43,810 nucleotides of DNA, taken from IMG/VR virus record IMGVR_UViG_2671180268_000014. The stretch is one strand, 5' to 3'. Positions 11,775-43,810 of this stretch are shown here, one piece after another. Within the stretch, counting starts at the first letter, position 1; the number at the start of each line of letters is the position of its first letter. This stretch comes from a virus (Duplodnaviria; Heunggongvirae; Uroviricota; Caudoviricetes). The notes below the pieces were generated by a model. The model did not search any database, was not told where the DNA came from, and worked only from the letters and a program-made list of their open reading frames with translations. A program made the position numbers and the translations under genes.

Positions 11775-11930
11775 ACGTTACTAGATCAAAGAGCATTAGT
11801 TCATATGTAAATTGACATTTTTCTGGCACAGGGGAGAGCTAGCGTGGTTGTCCGCTTTGTGCCAATAGCGGACATTGCTGGCTCATGGTATGTTAGTTTA
11901 AGGAGGCAGGTTATGCCCTGTATTTCGCTG

Positions 11931-11939
11931 TGGTATAAT
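11931..11939 (+). promoter_or_regulatory. Extended -10 promoter element (TGgTATAAT) for the AT-rich cassette
   Basis: TGGTATAAT read directly at 11931-11939, about 34 nt upstream of the GTG at 11973, which has an AGGGAG SD at 11958-11963. No strong -35. Confidence 0.4.
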
Positions 11940-11972
11940 AGTTGCGCAATTGATACAAGGGAGCGTTACATC

Positions 11973-12935
11973 GTGAAAATTGTTTTCGAGGTTAATGGAA
12001 AGAAAGTTCCACTAAAATCTTTAAAATACATAAGCAAAAAAGATCAACTCGAAGTAATGAAAAACTGGTTCTTTGAAAACTTTGAAGATCCGGCAAATGC
12101 TTGTCCGTATGAAAGTAGAGAAGGTGGCTATGCTTACATATATGGCGGGCCGTATGATGCGAGCGAAGAACTACAATCCATCTTCGGTCAATATGTTAAA
12201 TCTGAGTATATTGAGGAATTAGTAGATGAATTACAAACACAATGTTTTGACTGGTCTGGAAACTCAAATAATATAGATGATTGGTACGATGATGATATCT
12301 ACGACGCTGTAACGTCTTCCGGTAATCCGTATTTAAAATTCATTGATAATATCGATAAAATAAAAAAACTTGCAAAAGATAAAACTGAACAACAGCAAAA
12401 AAACCACTTGCTTAGTTTGCTCTACACGAATGTTATTACAGCTTTGGAAACGCTTTATGTTGAGCTATTCATTAATTCTATAGAGAAAGATGATGTCTAC
12501 ATAGCCAATTGTATAGAAAAAGGTAAGACTGAATTTAAAGTAAGCAAAGATATTGCTGCGTTGCCTTTCAAGGGTGAACCCATCGAGAAAATTAGGGGAG
12601 AGCTAATCAGGTCAATCAAGGAACACTTGATCAGTGCAAGCTGGCATAGCACTAAAAAGGTAATCGACCGCTATGAAGCTACATTCGATATAAAAGTACA
12701 AAAAGACTGTCCGATAGAAGCTATTGAATTGGCAACCCTCAATCGAAATCACTTAGTGCATCGTGGTGGAAAGGATAAAGAAGGGAACCTCGTAGTGATT
12801 ACAGACCAGGATCTTGAAACGCTGATTGAAAATGCATCGAACCTGGCAATTATGCTCTACAACAGTTTAAATGTAGCAACGAATAAAACCACCATTTTGC
12901 AACCAGATGACAAACCGTTCATTCATGAATTTTAA
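11973..12935 (+). CDS. Cassette gene A: hypothetical protein with C-terminal Rx4H (HEPN-like) motif
   Basis: AT-rich ORF. GTG start with AGGGAG SD preferred; the six-frame ORF extends upstream to 11844. RNHLVH at 12744-12761 in a helical C-terminal region. No family recognised. Confidence 0.5.
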   Translation: MKIVFEVNGKKVPLKSLKYISKKDQLEVMKNWFFENFEDPANACPYESREGGYAYIYGGPYDASEELQSIFGQYVKSEYIEELVDELQTQCFDWSGNSNNIDDWYDDDIYDAVTSSGNPYLKFIDNIDKIKKLAKDKTEQQQKNHLLSLLYTNVITALETLYVELFINSIEKDDVYIANCIEKGKTEFKVSKDIAALPFKGEPIEKIRGELIRSIKEHLISASWHSTKKVIDRYEATFDIKVQKDCPIEAIELATLNRNHLVHRGGKDKEGNLVVITDQDLETLIENASNLAIMLYNSLNVATNKTTILQPDDKPFIHEF

Positions 12936-12950
12936 TAGCGCAGGTCATAC

Positions 12951-13952
12951 ATGGATATTCGCACACGAAAGACAAAATTTTTAGAGTCGTTAGATTCAAC
13001 TGAAGTGATACGCAAAGCAGTAAGTCTCGCTATAGATTGCATTATTGATAATCATAATAGTAATGAAGATACCCCCTTAGTTATTACCAGCTATGATGAT
13101 CTCTGTAGAATCCAGGTGCTAAATTATGTACAGGAGTTTTGCGAAGCTGCATTCCCTGATATGGATGAATATTACTTTAGTCCTAACATACTTCGCATCA
13201 ACGGCAAGACTAGTGAAGAAGCTTGTATTAACTTAATTAAACTCTTAAGAAGTACAAAAGGCATGCTATTCTGGTCCGATGCCCCATCGTGGTTCGCTAG
13301 CCTCCCCGACGGATTATTCCATGTTGTTAACATTGATCAAAAAATCGTTACTCGCGGCCTTAATAAGAAAAACTCTAAGCCGACAATAATCAATAAAGAT
13401 TACAGTGTAGATACACTACTATCAGAGCTATTTTTGAATGGCGCACACATGGAGCAACCCAACGTACACAACGTTTCTGAGGGAAACATGAAGTTCTATG
13501 ATGAATGCCATGCTGGATTAATCAGACCAATACCCGCTCCAATAGGCGCGTCATACGATGAAGAGATCACAATTAATTCTCCAGATTGGCAAAAGCTCGC
13601 GTGTGTAGCTTTACGCCGCTATCAGTCGAAGGAATGTCATGACGGAATGCAATGGGATACAACCGATCATGGTTGGACTGATGTAATCGCGTATCCATTC
13701 GTCGAAGAAATACAATCAATGGATAATAGTGGTTATCGACAATGTTTAGTTGGGCTGGTCACAATAAACAATTCAAATGCAAATTCTCCGTACCTATCTA
13801 CCGTTTGGATACATCCATTTTATCGCAGGAGAGGGTTATTAAGTAAGTTATGGCCAAAATTACAAGAGTTATATGGAAGTAACTTCGAAATTGAGCGACC
13901 TAATGAAAATATGAAAGCATTTCTGAAAAGTGCGAAACACGCAGATTACTAA
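12951..13952 (+). CDS. Cassette gene B: hypothetical protein with GNAT-like C-terminal motif
   Basis: AT-rich 333-aa ORF 15 nt downstream of gene A. C-terminus VWIHPFYRRRGLLSKLW resembles the GNAT motif A strand-turn-helix. Fold assignment is inference only. Confidence 0.5.
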   Translation: MDIRTRKTKFLESLDSTEVIRKAVSLAIDCIIDNHNSNEDTPLVITSYDDLCRIQVLNYVQEFCEAAFPDMDEYYFSPNILRINGKTSEEACINLIKLLRSTKGMLFWSDAPSWFASLPDGLFHVVNIDQKIVTRGLNKKNSKPTIINKDYSVDTLLSELFLNGAHMEQPNVHNVSEGNMKFYDECHAGLIRPIPAPIGASYDEEITINSPDWQKLACVALRRYQSKECHDGMQWDTTDHGWTDVIAYPFVEEIQSMDNSGYRQCLVGLVTINNSNANSPYLSTVWIHPFYRRRGLLSKLWPKLQELYGSNFEIERPNENMKAFLKSAKHADY

Positions 13953-16324: not shown

Positions 16325-16614
16325 TGGTGAATTTACGTAAAGCGGCTAAAGGCCAGATGTGCCAGATCAGAATCCCTGGCTACTGCAATCACAATCCCGA
16401 AACCTCTGTGCTGGCGCATTACAGGCTGGCGGGGACGTGCGGAACAGCGACAAAACCACATGATATGCAGGCGGCGATAGCCTGTAGCTCATGCCACGAT
16501 CTAATCGACGGGCGGGTAAAAACCAGCGATTACACCAAAGAAGAATTGCGCCTGATGCATGCTGAAGGGGTTTTTCGCACACAAGAAATCTGGAGAAAGA
16601 AAGGTCATTTATGA
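16324..16614 (+). CDS. YbcO-like DUF1364 protein (putative nuclease)
   Basis: RKAAKGQMCQIRIPGYCNHNPETSVLAHYRLAGTCGTATKPHD and CSSCHDLIDGR align with recalled DLP12 YbcO including the conserved cysteines. Confidence 0.6.
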   Translation: MVNLRKAAKGQMCQIRIPGYCNHNPETSVLAHYRLAGTCGTATKPHDMQAAIACSSCHDLIDGRVKTSDYTKEELRLMHAEGVFRTQEIWRKKGHL

Positions 16615-17153
16615 TTTACCCAACGAATACAGGAAAAAGCGGAGAACACCTTCGCCTCACCACGCTGGAAAGTGTCTGGATTCAGGGAAAACTACGTATG
16701 TGGGGGCGCTGGTCGTATATTGGCGGTGGCAGGTCAGGGAATATGTTCAATCAGTTGTTGGCATCCAAAAAACTGACGAAAACAGCCATTAATGAAGCCC
16801 TGCGCAGAATGAAAAAAGCGGGAATAGAGAAAGCTGAGCTGGAAGCGTTTTTGCGAGAGATGATCAACGGCAAGCAAAAGAGCTGGCTGGCGCATTGTAC
16901 TGATGCAGAGGCGTTATGTATTGATCGAGTCATAAGTGAGGTGCTGGCAGAGCATCCAGGATTGATTTGCATTCTCCGGCAACGCTATGAAGGGCGGGGG
17001 ATGACTAAGCGCAAAATGGCTGAATTGCTAAATGATGCACACCCAGAGTGGTGTTTTAGCACATGCGAAAAACGGATTGCTAATTGGTTAGCTGTTGCTG
17101 AGTATGCCCTATATATTCCCATGCGTGAATCATTTGCTGAGAAAATGGCTTGA
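16611..17153 (+). CDS. Late-gene antiterminator Q-like protein
   Basis: Last ORF before a strong terminator and the lysis genes. N-terminal W-rich segment LRMWGRWSYIGGG resembles Q-family proteins. Overlaps the ybcO-like stop. Confidence 0.5.
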   Translation: MIYPTNTGKSGEHLRLTTLESVWIQGKLRMWGRWSYIGGGRSGNMFNQLLASKKLTKTAINEALRRMKKAGIEKAELEAFLREMINGKQKSWLAHCTDAEALCIDRVISEVLAEHPGLICILRQRYEGRGMTKRKMAELLNDAHPEWCFSTCEKRIANWLAVAEYALYIPMRESFAEKMA

Positions 17154-17233
17154 TTTCTTACGTATAAACTGCTTCAATTTTGCTATGCTTCGCAAAGCTG
17201 TATCGCGAGGCGGATTGCAGACATGGACATCGT

Positions 17234-17260
17234 AAAAAAACCGCTTAATGCGGTTTTTTT
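17234..17260. terminator. Rho-independent terminator, bidirectional (tR'-like)
   Basis: Perfect hairpin aaaaaaaccgc-TTAA-tgcggttttttt, A-run on one side and T-run on the other, about 80 nt downstream of the Q-like stop. Confidence 0.7.
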
Positions 17261-17580
17261 ACGTCAGGAAAGCAGGGGAGAATGCTGCTAGTTGGGCAAC
17301 TGGTCTTTCTGCTCCAAATTATAACAGAGACCAGTTATAGTTTCGGTGCTGTGTTTTTTTTACAATATTGTGATAACACATTGCTGGCGGGAGTTTTGAT
17401 ATTTCTTGGCAGGGGCTGATGATGCGTTATCCTGATGTCGTCAACTCATATAAAATGAGATGAGAGATCATTGCAGGGTGGTTTGTAATTCGCTGTTTAG
17501 CGGGACAATATGTTGTCTGATACAAGACACCCGACGCCTCAGATTACTATAATAAAGACGAAGCATCCTTTGTATTGACC

Positions 17581-17606
17581 AACCGCCTGTTTAGGCGGTT
17601 CTTTTT
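17581..17606 (+). terminator. Rho-independent terminator-like hairpin
   Basis: aaccgcc-tgttta-ggcggtt followed by cttttt, in the non-coding stretch between Q and the lipoprotein genes. Confidence 0.45.
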
Positions 17607-18197
17607 GGGCTGGTTTATTGTATGCCAAATGATTATTAAAAAGGTTGTGTTAATAACAAGATCCGAAATAATATGCCTGCATATTTTTATCTTGCTTATA
17701 TTCTGCATATTGTGCATAGCAGGCTCATCCCTGCAATCAAAACTGTATGATGAGTATTTTTTGTTTTCCTTTTTTCCAGTCATCTGATGATGACCTGCTT
17801 CTTTTTAATCCGGATCGACATCAGTTTTTTAAGATAATTCCTGCGAGTTATATGCATAAATGCCACAAACTCCGCATTTTATGTGGTTGGGAGTTGCCGG
17901 GCGCGCAGTGAGTTTGCTAAGAAAACTCCTGCATGGTGAATCCCCCTGTGCGGTGGGGTGATACCATTAACCTTTTCTGTCGCCGACAGGTATCACGAAC
18001 ATTTTGTTCACCGGGAGGCACCCGGCACCATGCACTTCAATAGATTCTCTCCACATTATGGATATTCTTTCAGAATATCCCACGCAGACTTTGTGTAAAT
18101 GTTAACAAATGTGCGTTTTATTTGATCTGATTCGCTGTTTGAGCGTCCAAAACAACGGTATATATAATCCTTTACTATATGACATATGTGAGGAAAA

Positions 18198-18626
18198 ATG
18201 GGTTTTCGTAGCGCATCAATTCTTACGTTGATTATTAGTGGGATTATTATCGGGTGCACTGATGCTGTATCGACAAATTATCATGACCGTACATCATATT
18301 ACTCCGATAAAGCAATAGAGACACAGTATGTGAGTTCATCTGAACGTACTTCTGATGTTAGTGAGGATATCCGTCTGTATGCCCATCAAATCAAGAGCGC
18401 CATCGAAAAACAGTTCGGGGATGCGAGTAAGTATTCAGGAAAAGAGTGTACACTGAGAATGCATATGGCCCCGAATGGCCTTCTACTGGAGGTTAAAAGA
18501 GAAAGTGGAGACCTCGATTTATGTCGTGAAGCGATGAATGCGATAAAGAATGCTGATATACCTGCCCCCCCTTCGCCGGAAGTATATAAAGTATTTCAAA
18601 ATGGGGTGCTGGATTTTAAACCCTGA
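18198..18626 (+). CDS. Lipoprotein with TolA C-terminal (domain III)-like domain
   Basis: Signal peptide plus lipobox (IIIGC, Thr at +2). C-terminus YAHQIKSAIEKQFGDASKYSGKECTLRMHMAPNGLLLEVK...PEVYKVFQNGVLDFKP closely parallels recalled TolA domain III. GAGGA SD. Confidence 0.6.
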   Translation: MGFRSASILTLIISGIIIGCTDAVSTNYHDRTSYYSDKAIETQYVSSSERTSDVSEDIRLYAHQIKSAIEKQFGDASKYSGKECTLRMHMAPNGLLLEVKRESGDLDLCREAMNAIKNADIPAPPSPEVYKVFQNGVLDFKP

Positions 18627-18776
18627 TATTTATTGTTTTGTAATAAACGGTTTCGGCTTAGGTTTGTTCTGACACAGCTACGGCACTGAGCTAAATTTAG
18701 CGGATAGTCAGCTCTGAGCCAGTGGCGGACGTAACAACTACTATTGCTGAGATTTTAATGGATTGAGGAGCAAGAA

Positions 18777-19172
18777 GTGGGATTAAAGAAAATCGTTATG
18801 TTGACTTTTTGGGTCGGTTTTGTTGCGGGATGCACACCTTTACACCCTTCAGATTGCCACAAAACTACTGCTACAGGTAGTTGCAGTTCAGGACGCTGGG
18901 ATGATCAGGATGAATGGGGGGCGCAAGCGCGGGGAATCAGAGCTGCAATTAATGCCAAACTTGATGAGCCGCATAACTGGAAAGGGAAAAAATGCAGGTT
19001 GCATATGGAATTCTCTCAGGATGGCACGGCGTTAAAAATATCTACCAGTAACGGTGATAAAGCCTATTGCGAAGCGATAAAGTCCGCAGCTCATAAAGCC
19101 AAATTTCCGGCCTTCAACAATCCGGAAGTCTACAGAGATTTTCAGAAATCTGGCTTTGACATGCGAGGTTAG
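18777..19172 (+). CDS. Second lipoprotein with TolA domain III-like C-terminus (paralogue)
   Basis: GTG start with GAGGAG SD; lipobox VAGC, Thr at +2. C-terminus KKCRLHMEFSQDGTALKIS...YCEAIKSAAHKAKFPAFNNPEVYRDFQ is collinear with the upstream paralogue. Confidence 0.55.
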   Translation: MGLKKIVMLTFWVGFVAGCTPLHPSDCHKTTATGSCSSGRWDDQDEWGAQARGIRAAINAKLDEPHNWKGKKCRLHMEFSQDGTALKISTSNGDKAYCEAIKSAAHKAKFPAFNNPEVYRDFQKSGFDMRG

Positions 19173-19423
19173 CTCTTCAATTACTATATCTCATTCATAG
19201 CAAACTGACAGATTTGATGATGTTCTATATACGAAACCTGTGATGTCAAGTCTGAGCTAATACAAATAAACATAATATCAGAGAAATACATTTTATTAGC
19301 TCGCTACGGCGAGCTTTTTATATTGCATCGTCTCCAGCATATATATCAATTAAGGCTCTGATTGATGTGTCTGAAAGCCTACACATAATAACTATGCCAT
19401 CCGTTCCGTGCGGAGGTGAGGCT

Positions 19424-19639
19424 ATGAAATCCATGGACAAAATTTCAACAGGCATTGCCTACGGCACCTCCGCAGGCAGTGCTGGCTACTGGTTTTTACA
19501 GTTGCTCGATAGAGTAACTCCGTCACAGTGGGCTGCAATCGGTGTGCTGGGTAGTCTGGTATTTGGCCTGCTGACGTACCTGACAAACCTTTATTTCAAG
19601 ATTAAAGAAGATAAGCGCAAGGCTGCGAGAGGTGAATAA
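19424..19639 (+). CDS. S: Pinholin, phage 21 S-type (dual-start MKSM)
   Basis: [71 protein letters not shown] matches recalled S21. The ORF-track start at 19367 is probably too long. Confidence 0.8.
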
Positions 19640-20136
19640 TGCCTCCATCATTACGAAAAGTCGTTGCTGCTGCTATTGGTGGCGGAGCAATTGCTATAGC
19701 ATCAGTGTTAATCACTGGCCCAAGTGGTAACGATGGTCTGGAAGGTGTCAGCTACATACCATACAAAGATATTGTTGGTGTATGGACTGTATGTCACGGG
19801 CATACAGGAAAAGACATCATGCTCGGTAAAACGTATACCAAAGCAGAATGCAAAACACTCTTGAATAAAGACCTTGCCACTGTCGCCAGACAAATTAACC
19901 CGTACATCAAAGTCGATATACCGGAAACAACGCGCGGCGCTCTTTACTCATTCGTTTACAACGTGGGTGCTGGCAATTTCAGAACATCGACGCTTCTTCG
20001 CAAAATAAACCAGGGCGATATCAAAGGCGCATGTGATCAGCTACGTCGCTGGACATATGCTGGCGGTAAGCAATGGAAAGGTCTCATGACTCGTCGTGAG
20101 ATTGAGCGTGAAATCTGTTTGTGGGGTCAGCAATGA
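19639..20136 (+). CDS. R: SAR endolysin (phage 21 R-type lysozyme)
   Basis: N-terminal weakly hydrophobic Gly/Ala-rich segment [20 protein letters not shown], then a lysozyme-like domain. Start overlaps the holin stop (TAATG). Confidence 0.85.
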
Positions 20137-20597
20137 ACAGAGTAACCGCGATTATCTCCGCTCTGGTTATCTGCATCATCGTCTGCCTGTCATGGGCTGT
20201 TAATCATTACCGTGATAACGCCATTACCTACAAAGCCCAGCGCGACAAAAATGCCAGAGAACTGAAGCTGGCGAACGCGGCAATTACTGACATGCAGATG
20301 CGTCAGCGTGATGTTGCTGCGCTCGATGCAAAATACACGAAGGAGTTAGCTGATGCGAAAGCTGAAAATGATGCTCTGCGTGATGATGTTGCCGCTGGTC
20401 GTCGTCGGTTGCACATCAAAGCAGTCTGTCAGTCAGTGCGTGAAGCCACCACCGCCTCCGGCGTGGATAATGCAGCCTCCCCCCGACTGGCAGACACCGC
20501 TGAACGGGATTATTTCACCCTCCGGGAACGACTGGTAATGATGCAGGCCCAACTTGAAGGTGCTCAGCAATACATAACCGAGCAGTGTTTAAAGTAA
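20133..20597 (+). CDS. Rz: Rz i-spanin
   Basis: [36 protein letters not shown] matches recalled lambda Rz. ATG overlaps the endolysin TGA (ATGA). Confidence 0.85.
20353..20538 (+). CDS. Rz1: Rz1 o-spanin lipoprotein, nested in Rz in the +1 frame
   Basis: Lipobox LVVVGC, proline-rich mature region ([16 protein letters not shown]); lies wholly inside Rz in another frame. Confidence 0.8.
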
Positions 20598-20734
20598 AAT
20601 CTTAACTACAATATGATTCATTTTGATGATTGTTTCATAAGGAACAGTGAAGTAAGATCTAAGAGGAGTTAAATTTTATACAGTATAATCATAATATTGC
20701 AGCAAGGTGGTTATAATTGAAAGAATATTTAGAT

Positions 20735-22192
20735 ATGAATACATCTCATGTAAGAGTTGTTACTCATATGTGTGGGTTCCTGGTTTGGCTCTATAGTCTT
20801 TCAATGTTGCCACCAATGGTTGTAGCATTGTTTTATAAAGAAAAAAGCCTGTTCGTTTTCTTTATAACTTTCGTTATATTTTTTTGCATTGGTGGCGGAG
20901 CGTGGTATACAACTAAGAAATCTGGCATTCAATTACGTACCCGTGATGGGTTTATTATAATTGTAATGTTTTGGATTTTGTTTTCTGTTATTAGTGCATT
21001 CCCTTTATGGATTGACTCAGAACTTAATTTAACGTTCATTGATGCTCTGTTTGAAGGGGTTTCTGGAATAACAACAACAGGAGCAACTGTAATTGATGAT
21101 GTTAGTTCATTACCTCGGGCATATTTGTACTATCGGTCACAGTTAAATTTTATAGGTGGTTTAGGAGTTATTGTTCTGGCGGTTGCAGTATTGCCATTAT
21201 TGGGTATTGGTGGTGCAAAGCTTTATCAGTCAGAAATGCCGGGGCCATTTAAGGATGACAAACTCACTCCCCGCCTGGCCGATACGTCACGGACACTGTG
21301 GATAACTTATTCTTTATTAGGTATTGCTTGTATTGTCTGTTATAGACTTGCAGGAATGCCTTTGTTTGATGCTATTTGTCACGGGATTTCCACAGTTTCG
21401 CTTGGTGGTTTCTCAACTCATAGCGAGAGTATCGGATATTTTAATAACTATTTGGTTGAGCTGGTGGCTGGTTCTTTTTCCCTGCTATCGGCTTTCAACT
21501 TCACTCTTTGGTATATTGTTATTAGCAGAAAAACGATAAAACCTTTAATCAGAGATATTGAACTTCGTTTCTTTCTGTTAATAGCCTTAGGGGTGATCAT
21601 TGTTACCTCTTTCCAGGTCTGGCATATAGGTATGTATGACTTGCATGGAAGTTTTATTCATTCGTTTTTTCTTGCCAGCTCCATGCTCACTGATAATGGT
21701 TTAGCTACGCAGGATTATGCAAACTGGCCCACGCACACGATAGTGTTTTTGCTGTTGTCAAGTTTCTTTGGGGGATGTATAGGTTCAACCTGTGGTGGAA
21801 TTAAGTCACTTCGATTTCTTATACTTTTCAAACAAAGCAAACACGAGATAAATCAGCTTTCTCATCCCAGAGCGTTGTTGAGTGTAAATGTAGGAGGGAA
21901 GATAGTTACAGATCGTGTAATGAGGTCTGTATGGAGTTTCTTTTTTCTTTATACTCTCTTCACGGTGTTTTTTATACTGGTGTTAAATGGTATGGGATAT
22001 GATTTTCTTACATCATTTGCAACAGTGGCTGCATGTATTAATAATATGGGATTAGGTTTTGGGGCTACTGCATCGTCATTCGGAGTGCTTAATGACATTG
22101 CAAAATATTTAATGTGCATAGCTATGATTCTTGGTCGCCTTGAAATTTATCCTGTTATTATATTGTTTTCAGGTTTTTTTTGGCGCTCCTAA
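20735..22192 (+). CDS. trkG: TrkH/TrkG-family potassium uptake protein
   Basis: 485-aa polytopic membrane protein from MNTSHVRVVTHMCGFLVWLYSL, matching recalled Rac TrkG. AT-rich relative to neighbours. ORF-track start at 20717 adds 6 residues. Confidence 0.85.
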   Translation: MNTSHVRVVTHMCGFLVWLYSLSMLPPMVVALFYKEKSLFVFFITFVIFFCIGGGAWYTTKKSGIQLRTRDGFIIIVMFWILFSVISAFPLWIDSELNLTFIDALFEGVSGITTTGATVIDDVSSLPRAYLYYRSQLNFIGGLGVIVLAVAVLPLLGIGGAKLYQSEMPGPFKDDKLTPRLADTSRTLWITYSLLGIACIVCYRLAGMPLFDAICHGISTVSLGGFSTHSESIGYFNNYLVELVAGSFSLLSAFNFTLWYIVISRKTIKPLIRDIELRFFLLIALGVIIVTSFQVWHIGMYDLHGSFIHSFFLASSMLTDNGLATQDYANWPTHTIVFLLLSSFFGGCIGSTCGGIKSLRFLILFKQSKHEINQLSHPRALLSVNVGGKIVTDRVMRSVWSFFFLYTLFTVFFILVLNGMGYDFLTSFATVAACINNMGLGFGATASSFGVLNDIAKYLMCIAMILGRLEIYPVIILFSGFFWRS

Positions 22193-40663: not shown

Positions 40664-43600
40664 ATGGGTAAAGGCAGCAGTAAGGGGCATACCCCGCGCG
40701 AAGCGAAGGACAACCTGAAGTCCACGCAGCTGCTGAGTGTGATCGATGCCATCAGCGAAGGGCCGGTTGAAGGTCCGGTGGATGGATTAAAAAGCGTGCT
40801 GCTGAACAGTACGCCGGTGCTGGACAGTGAGGGGAATACCAACATCTCCGGCGTCACGGTGGTGTTCCGGGCAGGTGAGCAGGAGCAGTCACCGCCGGAG
40901 GGATTTGAATCCTCCGGCTCCGAGACGGTGCTGGGTACGGAAGTGAAATATGACACGCCGATCACCCGGACCATCACGTCGGCAAACATCGACCGTCTGC
41001 GCTTTACCTTCGGTGTACAGGCACTGGTGGAAACCACCTCAAAGGGAGACAGGAATCCGTCGGAAGTCCGCCTGCTGGTTCAGATACAGCGTAACGGTGG
41101 CTGGGTGACGGAAAAAGACATCACCATTAAGGGCAAAACCACCTCGCAGTATCTGGTCTCGGTGGTGGTGGATAACCTGCCGCCGCGCCCGTTTAATATC
41201 CGGATGCGCAGAATGACGCCGGACAGCACCACAGACCAGCTGCAGAACAAAACGCTCTGGTCGTCATACACCGAAATCATCGATGTGAAACAGTGCTACC
41301 CGAACACGGCACTGGTCGGCGTACAGGTGGATTCGGAGCAGTTCGGCAGCCAGCAGGTGAGCCGTAATTATCATCTTCGCGGGCGCATTCTGCAGGTGCC
41401 GTCGAACTATAACCCGCAGACGCGACAATACAGCGGTATCTGGGACGGAACGTTAAAACCAGCATACAGCAACAACATGGCCTGGTGTCTGTGGGATATG
41501 CTGACCCACCCGCGCTACGGCATGGGGAAACGTCTTGGTGCGGCGGATGTGGACAAATGGGCGCTGTATGTCATCGGCCAGTACTGCGACCAGTCAGTGC
41601 CGGACGGCTTTGGCGGCACGGAGCCGCGCATCACCTGTAATGCGTACCTGACCACACAGCGCAAGGCGTGGGATGTGCTCAGTGATTTCTGCTCGGCGAT
41701 GCGCTGTATGCCGGTATGGAACGGGCAGACGCTGACGTTCGTGCAGGACCGACCGTCGGATAAGGTGTGGACCTATAACCGCAGTAATGTGGTGATGCCG
41801 GATGATGGCGCGCCGTTCCGCTACAGCTTCAGCGCCCTGAAAGACCGCCATAATGCCGTTGAGGTGAACTGGATTGACCCGGATAACGGCTGGGAGACGG
41901 CGACAGAGCTTGTGGAGGATACGCAGGCCATTGCCCGTTACGGTCGTAACGTCACGAAGATGGATGCTTTTGGCTGTACCAGCCGGGGGCAGGCACACCG
42001 CGCCGGGCTGTGGCTGATTAAAACAGAACTGCTGGAAACGCAGACCGTGGACTTCAGCGTGGGCGCAGAAGGGCTTCGCCATGTGCCGGGCGATGTCATT
42101 GAAATCTGTGATGATGACTATGCGGGTATCAGCATCGGCGGGCGCGTGCTGGCGGTAAACAGCCAGACCCGGACGCTGACGCTCGACCGTGAAATCACGC
42201 TGCCATCCTCCGGTACCATGCTGATAAGCCTGGTTGACGGAAGTGGCAATCCGGTCAGCGTGGAGGTTCAGTCCGTCACCGACGGCGTGAAGGTGAAAGT
42301 GAGCCGTGTTCCTGACGGCGTTGCTGAATACAGCGTGTGGGGGCTGAAGCTGCCGACGTTGCGCCAGCGCCTGTTCCGCTGTGTGAGTATCCGTGAGAAC
42401 GATGACGGCACGTATGCCATCACTGCCGTGCAGCATGTACCGGAAAAAGAAGCCATCGTGGATAACGGGGCGCACTTTGACGGCGACCAGAGCGGCACGG
42501 TGAATGGTGTCACGCCGCCAGCGGTGCAGCACCTGACTGCCGAAGTCACCGCAGACAGCGGGGAATATCAGGTGCTGGCGCGCTGGGACACGCCGAAGGT
42601 GGTGAAGGGGGTGAGCTTTATGCTTCGCCTGACCGTGGCAGCGGATGACGGCAGTGAGCGGCTGGTCAGCACGGCCCGGACGACGGAAACCACATACCGC
42701 TTCACGCAACTGGCGCTGGGACGGTACACGCTGACAGTCCGGGCGGTAAATGCCTGGGGACAGCAGGGCGATCCGGCGTCGGTATCGTTCAGGATTGCCG
42801 CACCGGTAGCACCGTCGCGGATTGAGCTGACGCCGGGCTATTTTCAGATAACTGCCACGCCGCATCTTGCGGTTTATGATCCGACGGTACAGTTTGAGTT
42901 CTGGTTCTCGGAAACGCGGATTACCGATATCAGGCAGGTTGAAACCACAGCCCGCTACCTTGGCGCGGGGCTGTACTGGATAGCCGCCAGTATCAATATC
43001 AAACCGGGCCATGATTATTACTTTTATATCCGCAGTGTGAACACCGTTGGCAAATCGGCATTCGTGGAGGCCGTCGGTCGGGCGAGCGATGATGCGGAAG
43101 GTTACCTGGATTTTTTCAAAGGCAAGATAACCGAATCCCATCTCGGTAAAGAGCTGCTGGAAAAAGTTGATCTGACGGAGGATAACGCCAGCAGACTGGA
43201 TGAGTTTTCGAAAGAGTGGAAGGACGCTAACGATAAATGGAATGCGATGTGGGGCGTCAAAATTGAGCAGACCAAAGACGGCAAACATTATGTCGCGGGT
43301 ATTGGCCTCAGCATGGAGGACACGGAGGAAGGCAAGCTGAGCCAGTTTCTGGTTGCCGCCAATCGTATCGCGTTTATTGACCCGGCAAACGGGAATGAAA
43401 CGCCGATGTTTGTGGCGCAGGGCAACCAGATATTCATGAACGACGTGTTCCTGAAGCGCCTGACAGCCCCCGCCATTACCAGCGGTGGCAGTCCTCCGGT
43501 ATTTTCCCTGACATCAGACGGAAAGCTGACCGCTAAAAATGCGGATATCAGTGGTAGTGTGAATGCGAACTCAGGAACGCTCAACAATGTCACGATTAAC

Positions 43601-43810
43601 CAGAACTGTACGATTAAGGGCATGCTGGAGGCGACCCAGGTCAGAGGGGATTTCGTTAAAGCTGTATCAAAAGCCTTCCCGAAAAAAGTCGGTACGTGGG
43701 GTAACACGGAAACACCAGACGGTACGGTTACAGTCACCATCAGCGATGATCATAACTTTGACCGCCAGATTATTATTCCGCCCATTATTTTTAACGGTAT
43801 AGCGTATGAC
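40664..43810 (+). CDS. J: Host specificity / central tail fibre protein J (lambda J-like), 3' end beyond window
   Basis: ATG at 40664 with GAGGA SD. Frame read open to the window end (1049 codons); matches recalled lambda gpJ from [34 protein letters not shown] onward. Minus-strand ORFs here are antisense artefacts. Confidence 0.9.

Follow-up and report, generated by a model that had tools for sequence, protein, structure and literature searches.

Why would a prophage carry, next to its lysis genes, two lipoproteins that resemble the C-terminal domain of a periplasmic protein of its own host? The question is raised by the 43,810-nucleotide window of IMG/VR virus record IMGVR_UViG_2671180268_000014 (Duplodnaviria; Heunggongvirae; Uroviricota; Caudoviricetes), a full-length Rac-type lambdoid prophage of Escherichia coli, in which two adjacent open reading frames, here called ORF1 and ORF2, occupy positions 18198-19172. 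An initial annotation, made from the letters alone, had described them as tandem paralogous lipoproteins that mimic domain III of TolA (TolAIII), and had suggested that they act as decoys or modulate the Tol-Pal system. Our analysis supports the structural mimicry: both proteins are lipobox-anchored, stand-alone copies of TolA domain III. As to their function, we tentatively favour a role as outer-membrane-tethered decoys for invaders that depend on TolA, i.e. filamentous phages, by way of their g3p, and group A colicins.

Two lipoproteins with the fold of TolA domain III

The two genes and their parts are as follows.

18198..18626, plus strand: ORF1, intact open reading frame for a lipoprotein with the TolA domain III fold, 142 amino acids (aa)
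Within ORF1, plus strand: signal peptide, aa 1-20; disordered linker, aa 21-53; TolAIII, aa 54-142 (18357-18623)
18777..19172, plus strand: ORF2, intact open reading frame for a lipoprotein with the TolA domain III fold, 131 aa, GTG start
Within ORF2, plus strand: signal peptide, aa 1-19; TolAIII domain, aa 46-131 (18912-19169)

In agreement with the proposed likeness to TolA's C-terminal domain, the Pfam profile TolA_C (PF06519, cutoff 25) matched ORF1 with 82.6 bits (E = 2.4e-23) and ORF2 with 54.6 bits (E = 1.3e-14). Against the TolA chains of the Protein Data Bank (PDB), aa 55-142 of ORF1 aligned without a gap to TolA residues 334-421 (E = 5e-28, 59% identity), and ORF2 gave E = 5e-9, with about 31% identity to E. 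coli TolAIII. The C-terminal ends, ...VFQNGVLDFKP in ORF1 and ...VFKNAPLDFKP in TolA, had been quoted correctly for both proteins. AlphaFold2 modelled the TolAIII domains of ORF1 and ORF2 with a predicted local distance difference test score (pLDDT) above 90, and the first ~50 residues of ORF1 and ~40 of ORF2, which correspond to signal peptide and linker, with pLDDT below 50. In Foldseek, the predicted structure of ORF1 superposed on 2x9a_B, from the PDB entry of the If1 g3p-TolA complex, with a template modelling (TM) score of 0.96 and a root-mean-square deviation (rmsd) of 0.6 Å at 59% identity; the predicted structure of ORF2 superposed on 3qdp, TolAIII as taken from its colicin A complex, with a TM score of 0.92 and an rmsd of 1.1 Å at 31% identity. 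The similarity of the two proteins to TolA is far above chance. The cysteine pair C363 and C388 of TolA is invariant in ORF1, ORF2 and all aligned relatives, and by profile score, fold and disulfide pair both proteins are members of the family of TolA C-terminal domains. Foldseek matches of ORF1 and ORF2 also reach the TonB C-terminal domains bound to FhuA and BtuB, and ORF1 has an additional Pfam match to TonB_2. A search of the BFVD viral structure library gave no fold match at E <= 0.001.

The presence of a lipoprotein signal peptide in each protein, a lipobox and a threonine at position +2, as first proposed, could be confirmed. The N-terminus of ORF1 reads MGFRSASILTLIISGIIIGC followed by TDA, with the lipobox IIGC, Cys20 encoded at 18255-18257 and Thr at +2; that of ORF2 reads (GTG)MGLKKIVMLTFWVGFVAGC followed by TPL, with the lipobox VAGC, Cys19 encoded at 18831-18833 and likewise Thr at +2. 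Both lipoboxes fit the pattern [LVI][ASTVI][GAS]C and are preceded by a charged n-region and a hydrophobic h-region. Because neither protein has an aspartate at +2, the standard Lol rule predicts that both are sorted to the outer membrane. Each gene was also correctly credited with its own Shine-Dalgarno (SD) sequence: an SD-like GAGGA precedes ORF1 at 18190-18194, and GAGGAG precedes ORF2 at 18765-18770. The GTG start of ORF2 and its GAGGAG are kept in the aligned chromosomal homologues of Enterobacter, Serratia and Citrobacter; in the plasmid copies of the ORF2-type gene the SD is kept and the equivalent start codon encodes Met (P0053). The start that RefSeq assigns to ORF2, at Met8, would delete the charged n-region of the signal peptide.

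Both proteins share with TolA domain III (PF06519; PDB 1TOL, 1S62, 2X9A, 3QDP/3QDR) the fold, in which helices pack against a sheet of three strands, the disulfide pair and the C-terminal beta3 edge strand. The remainder of TolA is missing. Neither protein has the inner-membrane anchor, an N-terminal helix that contacts TolQ and TolR, the SHLS motif, or the long helical domain II that spans the periplasm; a cleavable lipoprotein signal peptide with its lipobox takes the place of the anchor, and a disordered linker of 25-35 residues that of domain II. Profile matches to the full-length TolA models TIGR02794 and PRK09510 span only their last ~85-97 positions. With PRK09510, ORF1 scored 107.8 and ORF2 53.7, both below the cutoff of 213; with TIGR02794 (cutoff 59.45), ORF1 passed with 75.6 by virtue of its C-terminal domain and ORF2 failed with 47.2. 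TolA is encoded in the tolQRA-tolB-pal operon, whereas ORF1 and ORF2 sit in the prophage slot between the late antiterminator gene Q and the holin gene, and their family is found on prophages, on plasmids and as accessory chromosomal genes. By anchor, domain II, equivalog score and operon context, ORF1 and ORF2 are therefore not TolA, and since the membrane anchor and domain II are absent they cannot couple with TolQR or the proton-motive force.

Two separate lineages, intact and under selection

ORF1 and ORF2 are 27% identical to each other, and ORF1 is 59% identical to host TolA. The description of the pair as tandem paralogues goes too far; a recent tandem duplication is ruled out by the mutual identity of merely 27%, ORF1 being nearer to TolA than to its neighbour. 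A recent capture of the 3' end of E. coli tolA is likewise ruled out, as ORF1 is only 59% identical to TolAIII. ORF1 and ORF2 are separately acquired lineages, as indicated by their low mutual identity and also by their different distributions.

In the IMG/VR prophage copies ORF1 is intact in 80 out of 80, and ORF2 in all 77 copies in which it could be read through, the remaining three being cut by contig ends. For the ORF2 lineage, the ratio of nonsynonymous to synonymous substitution rates (dN/dS) was 0.08-0.12 against the plasmid and chromosomal homologues and 0.06 for the linker alone; ORF2-type genes are under strong purifying selection. For ORF1 compared with a variant of 66% identity, dN/dS was 0.36 overall, 0.24 in the domain and 0.50 in signal peptide and linker. 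In ORF2, residues 19-36 of the linker (18831-18884) read CxPLHPSxCHKTTATGSC, followed by SSGRWDDQDEWG, and contain two further conserved cysteines. The linker is selected as strongly as the folded domain, which suggests that it forms a disulfide-bonded loop and has its own function; the linker of ORF1 is variable.

These values bear on the entry in RefSeq, where the PGAP annotation (e.g. NZ_CP033250.1) lists ORF1 as 'tolA, cell envelope integrity protein TolA, pseudogene, missing N-terminus', with a feature that begins well within ORF1. It could accordingly be supposed that ORF1 and ORF2 are dead pieces of tolA acquired by a phage. Besides the pseudogene flag itself, this is suggested by the fact that ORF1 exceeds the TIGR02794 cutoff only through its C-terminal 97 residues. 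Each ORF, however, is complete in itself, with start codon, SD, signal peptide of the lipoprotein type and stop codon, the intact copies counted above are independent, dN/dS is well below 1, and the diverged ORF1 variants (66-91% identity) all retain the lipobox; at 59% identity to E. coli TolA, ORF1 is moreover no recent piece of the host gene. The pseudogene reading is contradicted by the intactness of all copies and by the dN/dS values, and we consider it hardly credible. The RefSeq label of ORF1 is wrong and appears to be a systematic misannotation, probably because ORF1 passes TIGR02794 by a single C-terminal domain; it hides an intact and conserved gene.

Ligand-binding surfaces

Three ligands of TolAIII, namely g3p-N1, colicin N and the N-terminus of TolB, each add a strand to TolA beta3 with backbone hydrogen bonds to D418 and K420, and proline substitutions at these two residues abolish binding and cause the full tol phenotype (PMC4339652; PMC7391070; bioRxiv 10.1101/790931). 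The beta3 strand reads LDFKP in ORF1, identical to TolA, and FDMRG in ORF2. Colicin A binds the opposite edge of TolAIII (L375-P380) and makes cation-pi contacts with K368, K379 and K396 (PMC3365938). On this face ORF1 has H, K and K at the positions of the three lysines, together with LLEVKR, and ORF2 has E, S and H. Judged by these residues, ORF1 would retain both known ligand faces of TolAIII and ORF2 only the beta3-edge site, and the two proteins probably differ in ligand range because ORF2 lacks all three of the lysines that contact colicin A.

A tyrosine that two genetic screens singled out for TolB binding was named Y352 (PMC2707214); it appears to be Tyr353 in the numbering that fits K368, K396 and D418. 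The equivalent residue is Gly in ORF1 and Asp in ORF2, and its replacement in both would fit a decoy that spares the Tol-Pal function of the host.

A proposed tethered decoy for TolA-dependent invaders

In the reading that we favour, each lipoprotein would hang a free copy of TolAIII into the periplasm, on a flexible tether of 25-35 residues from the outer membrane. The copies would sit just beneath the outer membrane, at the place where g3p-N1 or a colicin T-domain would first appear on its way in. There, N1 of Ff- or If1-type g3p, as well as the translocation domains of colicins that depend on Tol (group A) and of related bacteriocins, would be captured in a dead-end complex, and the lysogen, or the host of the plasmid, would become tolerant or would exclude the invader. 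Of the two decoys ORF1 would be the broader, ORF2 being limited to ligands of the beta3-edge site. A promoter of the genes' own would drive them in the lysogen, and the Q-dependent transcript would do so a second time, late. What the analysis shows is the fold, the lipobox with its +2 residue, the lack of TolA domains I and II, the intact state of the genes, the purifying selection on them and their spread on mobile elements; that the proteins reach the outer membrane, bind these ligands, are made in the lysogen and protect it is what we infer in this scheme.

In work attributed to Levengood-Freyermuth and colleagues (1993), exported TolAIII reportedly gives tolerance to colicins and to Ff phage. 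F- and I-type plasmids make pili, which are the primary receptors of the TolA-dependent filamentous phages of the Ff and If1 groups. Phages of the F pilus are known to require Tol (PMC13596461). In favour of a decoy we further count the close match of both proteins to TolAIII, the beta3 strand and its conservation in the wider family, the state of the colicin A face in ORF1, the replaced tyrosine, the lack of Asp at +2 in all lipobox-bearing representatives, the moron-like unit, the accessory slots that relatives occupy on mobile elements, and the selection on the genes.

Distribution in prophages, chromosomes and plasmids

A match to the ORF1-ORF2 region is present in 1340 of 5426 complete E. 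coli genomes, about a quarter, and the whole two-gene cassette in 775 (14%), almost always at >=99% identity. Isolated phages with either gene are confined to one of 50,697 records (mEp460_ev081), a protein-level search included. PHROGs places the phage members in phrog_5772, for which the function is listed as unknown.

The two lineages have different ranges. ORF1-type proteins, comprising variants of 91, 74 and 66% identity that all have a lipobox, were found only in E. coli and Shigella, and wherever the context was examined their genes lie in prophages. The 66% variant stands alone, without ORF2, between a different Q (PF03589) and the holin gene, beside the morons TfpB, an AraC-type regulator and a nanS-p-like esterase. 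Proteins of the ORF2 type, at 78-89% identity, are spread over Citrobacter, Enterobacter, Serratia, Klebsiella, Raoultella, Pluralibacter, Pantoea, Kluyvera and Yokenella. On the chromosomes that were examined the gene stands singly, in neighbourhoods unrelated to one another: the Citrobacter gene adjoins arsRBC, an Enterobacter copy lies between genes for a glutathione peroxidase and RidA, and in Serratia marcescens (chromosomal loci L011/L012, 6957-8736) the gene lies between nrdDG and a GmrSD-HEPN pair. The Serratia gene together with these GmrSD-family and HEPN-domain genes looks like a small defence island. When the neighbouring ORFs of 18 species-level ORF2-type loci were clustered, no conserved partner emerged and only generic LysR regulators recurred. 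The initial description of the genes as phage-encoded hence holds for the prophage genes and for the ORF1 type, and is too narrow for the ORF2 lineage, which is also a single-gene accessory locus on chromosomes and plasmids of Enterobacterales.

About 600 plasmids carry an ORF2-type gene of 87-88% nucleotide identity. In every sampled I-complex plasmid (IncK2/Z, IncI1/B/O, MPF_I) it follows the relaxase gene nikB after 68 nucleotides (nt), on the same strand, and pO157 carries it in the leading region, past psiB, psiA and hok. A third lineage is represented by a 144-aa lipoprotein (LLITAC followed by S; WP_001567367), which is 35% identical to ORF2 and bears the RefSeq name 'tolA'; it is found on about 310 plasmids of Klebsiella, Enterobacter and Pantoea. 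The four plasmids of this lineage that were examined are of the IncF, IncR and Pantoea IncFIB types, with Klebsiella pneumoniae plasmid pMR0617ctx (locus L018, 4217-5246) as an example and L104 and L105 among the others, and a thioredoxin-fold gene precedes in two of the three contexts shown. The plasmid hosts of these relatives were mostly of F or I type in a sample of about a dozen contexts, taken without statistics.

A HMMER search with ORF2 as the query, run in full against 1.8 billion cluster representatives, gave 130 matches at E <= 1e-3, including a set of 67 complete short proteins of 105-170 aa. By a heuristic criterion, 51 of these 67 have a lipobox, and Asp at +2 is found in none of the 51. 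Among 70 wider-family sequences, 65-66 contain the cysteine pair, and [LIF]-D-[FM]-[KR] is the most conserved motif outside the core among the 67 short representatives. As 53 of 71 aligned sequences stop exactly where TolA ends, at beta3, the edge strand is left free. A lipobox, a linker and a TolAIII domain therefore make up a broad and recurrent architecture.

A mobile cassette between Q and the holin gene

The genetic setting of ORF1 and ORF2 is given by the following features.

16611..17153, plus strand: Q-like late antiterminator gene (DUF1133); phrog_753 'anti-termination protein Q-like', E = 2e-79; DUF1133 also in RefSeq
17236..17262, plus strand: strong intrinsic terminator, AAAAAAACCGCTTAATGCGGTTTTTTT, taken straight from the sequence, 80-110 nt past the Q-like gene
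17581..17600, plus strand: second terminator-like hairpin between the Q-like gene and the cassette; from a scan, -14 kcal/mol, z = -2.0
17901..18087, plus strand: STnc100-family RNA element, ~110 nt upstream of ORF1; Rfam RF02076, 86.6 bits, gathering score 47
18005..19640, plus strand: mosaic module of promoter, ORF1, ORF2, terminator and holin gene, delimited by IMG/VR contigs and phage mEp460_ev081
18139..18168, plus strand: sigma-70-like promoter, TTGAGC-18 nt-TATAAT, ~30 nt upstream of ORF1; from a scan, 10/12 matches, consensus only
19298..19322, plus strand: intrinsic terminator, AGCTCGC-TACG-GCGAGCT then TTTTTAT; from a scan, -13 kcal/mol, z = -3.7
19424..19639, plus strand: holin gene (essD type); PHROG holin family; RefSeq essD
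19639-20136, plus strand: endolysin gene; PHROG endolysin family; RefSeq rrrD
20121-20597 and 20353-20538, plus strand: Rz/Rz1 genes; PHROG Rz families

The placement of the genes between Q and the holin gene was borne out by the PHROG assignments: ORF1 and ORF2 are flanked by the Q-like gene, which is the upstream border of this late-region slot, and by the genes for holin, which is the downstream border, endolysin and Rz/Rz1. In the nearly identical region of strain ECCHD184, RefSeq lists intR, xisR, rcbA, ralR, recT, recE, kilR and sieB and, further downstream, the DUF1367, DUF1364 and DUF1133 genes, two TolA-like genes, essD, rrrD, a lysis protein gene and trkG. Stx phages carry tRNAs in the Q-to-holin slot; a tRNA scan of the slot found none here.

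The terminator at 17236-17262, a hairpin that the terminator scan had missed, is overlapped by an isrK-like Rfam match (17187-17260), a weak one whose 21.6 bits fall short of the gathering score. The stretch 17187-17262 looks like a short pR'-tR' leader, with the terminator as candidate tR', and its position presumably resembles that of IsrK in Salmonella Gifsy-1. The terminal hairpin of the STnc100 element is AT-rich and lacks the U-run of the family consensus, so that the element may not terminate transcription here. The promoter suspected near 18160 was found as the consensus match at 18139-18168, which includes TATATATAAT at 18159-18168. The terminator at 19298-19322 closes the ORF1-ORF2 unit upstream of the holin gene. 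The unit has a G+C content of 0.38-0.45, as against 0.47-0.50 for the Q-like gene and a maximum of 0.55 for the lysis genes. The assignment as a moron-like unit, with a predicted promoter, ORF1, ORF2 and a predicted terminator, is thus upheld. The layout is predicted to be that of a classic moron, which would be shielded from read-through in the lysogen, would have its own promoter and would be read through late by Q-modified polymerase.

The stretch 18005-19640 moves as a unit from one lambdoid background to another. Of the 80 IMG/VR prophage contigs, 39 start to match the window at ~18000-18010, and in 36 of the 80 the match stops at ~19620-19640, the end of the holin gene and away from the contig edge. 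Phage mEp460_ev081 is 99% identical over 18007-19640, with lower identity out to 17910, and has a different Q and a different endolysin. The left recombination boundary near 18005 falls within the STnc100 element. The block is therefore discrete in unrelated backgrounds: its flanks differ on both sides, and an ORF1-type gene also stands alone beside other morons.

Some further features of the prophage were seen. The trkG gene, a low-GC potassium transporter gene at 20717-22192 on the plus strand (G+C 0.32-0.42), lies directly after Rz/Rz1 as in the Rac prophage of E. coli K-12, which is not known to carry the ORF1-ORF2 region. The RalA antitoxin small RNA of the RalR/RalA type I toxin-antitoxin system was detected at 1557-1735 on the plus strand (225 bits), in keeping with the Rac type of the prophage. 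Two cargo ORFs, one of 363 aa that weakly matches a HEPN/RES N-terminal domain and one of 333 aa that weakly matches GNAT, lie at 11844-13952 on the plus strand, past the replication genes and ahead of the nin region; the equivalent position in ECCHD184 holds genes for a BCCT transporter, DUF2254, LysR, a gamma-glutamylcyclotransferase and an MFS transporter. The position is a second slot for variable cargo, which may here hold a toxin or defence pair. On the minus strand, at 41594-43740 and ~1 kb past the homologue of tail assembly protein I, two ORFs of 564 aa and 150 aa had no match in Pfam.

Weighing the possible functions

Several observations weigh against a decoy. In our literature search no functional study of a phage- or plasmid-encoded TolAIII lipoprotein was found; of the papers retrieved, one has just the entry 'TolA protein, hypothetical protein' among its tabulated strain-specific regions (PMC6854850), one concerns host tolA (PMC2948877) and one merely cites a TolA paper (PMC3210124). 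No defence-protein model of PADLOC-DB 2.0 matched ORF1 or ORF2 at E up to 1. The conservation of the beta3 strand can be explained by folding alone. ORF2-type genes are stable in ordinary chromosomal neighbourhoods of Enterobacter and Citrobacter, without a mobile or defence context, which fits a housekeeping role in the envelope equally well, and the gene is carried by only a subset of F- and I-type plasmids. A TolAIII domain tethered to the outer membrane adjoins TolB-Pal and could equally titrate TolB. Lastly, the promoter is known only as a match to the consensus, and the late lytic transcript may be the sole source of expression, in which case protection of the lysogen would be unlikely.

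The titration of TolB leads to an alternative in which the tethered TolAIII binds the N-terminal strand of TolB, competes with TolA and damps the mobilisation of Pal, so that the outer membrane would be looser, with more vesicles or leakiness, and late expression would ease rupture and phage release. The beta3 site is shared by TolB, g3p and colicin N (PMC4339652; bioRxiv 10.1101/790931; PMC7391070), exported TolAIII makes E. coli leak periplasmic proteins (PMC6195910), and a review of Tol-Pal proposes that vesicle production could be regulated via changes in TolB interactions (PMC7391070). The genes also lie directly upstream of the lysis cassette, the holin gene moves within the same module, and Q-dependent late co-transcription is expected because they are downstream of the Q-like gene behind several terminators. 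On the other hand, the TolA-TolB interaction is weak, with a dissociation constant (Kd) of 40-200 uM (PMC7391070), and the tyrosine linked to TolB is replaced in both lineages (PMC2707214). A chronic tol phenotype, with sensitivity to bile and detergents, would carry a high price in the gut, whereas 775 complete E. coli genomes keep the cassette intact and more than 99% conserved, and ORF2-type genes are stable on Enterobacter chromosomes. A lysis helper would, furthermore, leave the plasmid and chromosomal copies unexplained, as no lysis genes are nearby. We regard a modulator of Tol-Pal as the main rival of the decoy, though as an unlikely one. Still less probable in our estimate is that the fold has been retargeted to another periplasmic strand, such as a Ton box or a receptor turn, so that a receptor would be inactivated from inside and tailed phages excluded. 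The structural matches to TonB C-terminal domains with FhuA and BtuB and the match of ORF1 to TonB_2 point in this direction, as do the ~31% identity of ORF2 to TolAIII and the loss of its colicin A contact lysines; the ORF2 linker with its two extra cysteines, conserved like the domain (dN/dS 0.06), suggests a specific partner. Prophage lipoproteins of the outer membrane that block their receptors from within the periplasm are established (Llp-FhuA, bioRxiv 10.64898/2026.03.26.714494). Such retargeting is most plausible for ORF2. In ORF1, the 59% identity, the identical beta3 and the largely kept colicin A face argue for TolA's own ligands, and for the family as a whole no receptor gene or other conserved partner is linked to it, and Pfam and PHROGs show no similarity to Cor or Llp.

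A general envelope or virulence lipoprotein, comparable to lambda Bor, Iss and TraT, would confer resistance to serum, bile or antimicrobial peptides without involving ligands of TolA. The Bor-like occurrence beside the lysis cassette, the close relatives on the virulence plasmid pO157 and the frequency of the genes in clinical and animal E. coli are in line with such a role, but there is no homology to Bor, Iss or TraT, and the precise conservation of the TolAIII fold, the disulfide pair and the free beta3 edge would be left unexplained; we consider it very unlikely. The tethered decoy is the reading that we retain, with the reservations given above. Its extension to the whole family, in which stand-alone TolAIII lipoproteins would be a widespread, hitherto unrecognised, mimicry-based envelope defence of prophages, plasmids and chromosomes of Enterobacterales that would stop g3p and Tol-dependent bacteriocins short of the energised TolA, F and I plasmids would offset the weakness brought by their pili and the changes at Tyr353 would spare TolB, is possible but doubtful.

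Relation to known systems

The concept of a dominant-negative or decoy TolAIII has a laboratory precedent, the exported TolAIII of the Wan & Baneyx construct of 1998, which was used to make E. coli leak periplasmic proteins and likewise places TolAIII in the periplasm without the rest of TolA (PMC6195910). Unlike the construct, the natural proteins are lipid-tethered and diverged (Y353G and K368H in ORF1, loss of the colicin A lysines in ORF2), and they are presumably expressed at low native levels. A natural counterpart with the same expected phenotype is the exclusion mediated by g3p. As Boeke, Model and Zinder are said to have found in 1982, g3p made in an infected cell occupies TolA and causes colicin tolerance and resistance to superinfection. 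The g3p-N1/TolAIII interface is the same; in that case the host receptor is saturated with the ligand of the invader, whereas a decoy would saturate the ligand of the invader with a copy of the receptor.

Cor is a prophage lipoprotein of the outer membrane that blocks its receptor from the periplasmic side. Cor (phi80/N15/HK022/mEp phages) and Llp (T5) are likewise encoded at moron-like positions, but they are unrelated to ORF1 and ORF2 in sequence and fold: with ORF1 and ORF2 as queries, Pfam returned TolA, TonB_2 and a sub-threshold But2 (E = 0.15), PHROGs returned phrog_5772 only, and neither gave Cor or Llp. Cor and Llp inactivate the receptor FhuA, whereas ORF1 and ORF2 copy a periplasmic co-receptor of the host and would intercept the ligand of the invader instead of masking a receptor. 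Lambda Bor and plasmid Iss are likewise lipoproteins, encoded by morons near lambdoid lysis cassettes with homologues on large virulence plasmids; their fold is unrelated, and they are linked to serum resistance, not to Tol.

Significance

The existence of these genes is already known from the domain annotation in RefSeq, and a role for them would be new. The ORF2-type copies on pO157 and on IncK/B/O resistance plasmids, and the commonness of the genes, would lend such a role practical weight. If TolB is what the proteins titrate, the Tol-Pal mobilisation-and-capture cycle and vesicle production would have their first natural regulators, and TolB-modulated vesicle regulation has been raised as an open question (PMC7391070). 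If they are decoys, this natural defence would work by the display of a copied domain of the host's co-receptor, without a surface receptor being hidden or altered; in our literature search, no exclusion of phages or colicins by the display of a co-receptor domain was found described. Such decoys could bias the outcome of therapeutics based on colicins or other bacteriocins, and filamentous-phage tools, such as phage display and phagemid delivery, as well as competition in the gut could be affected.

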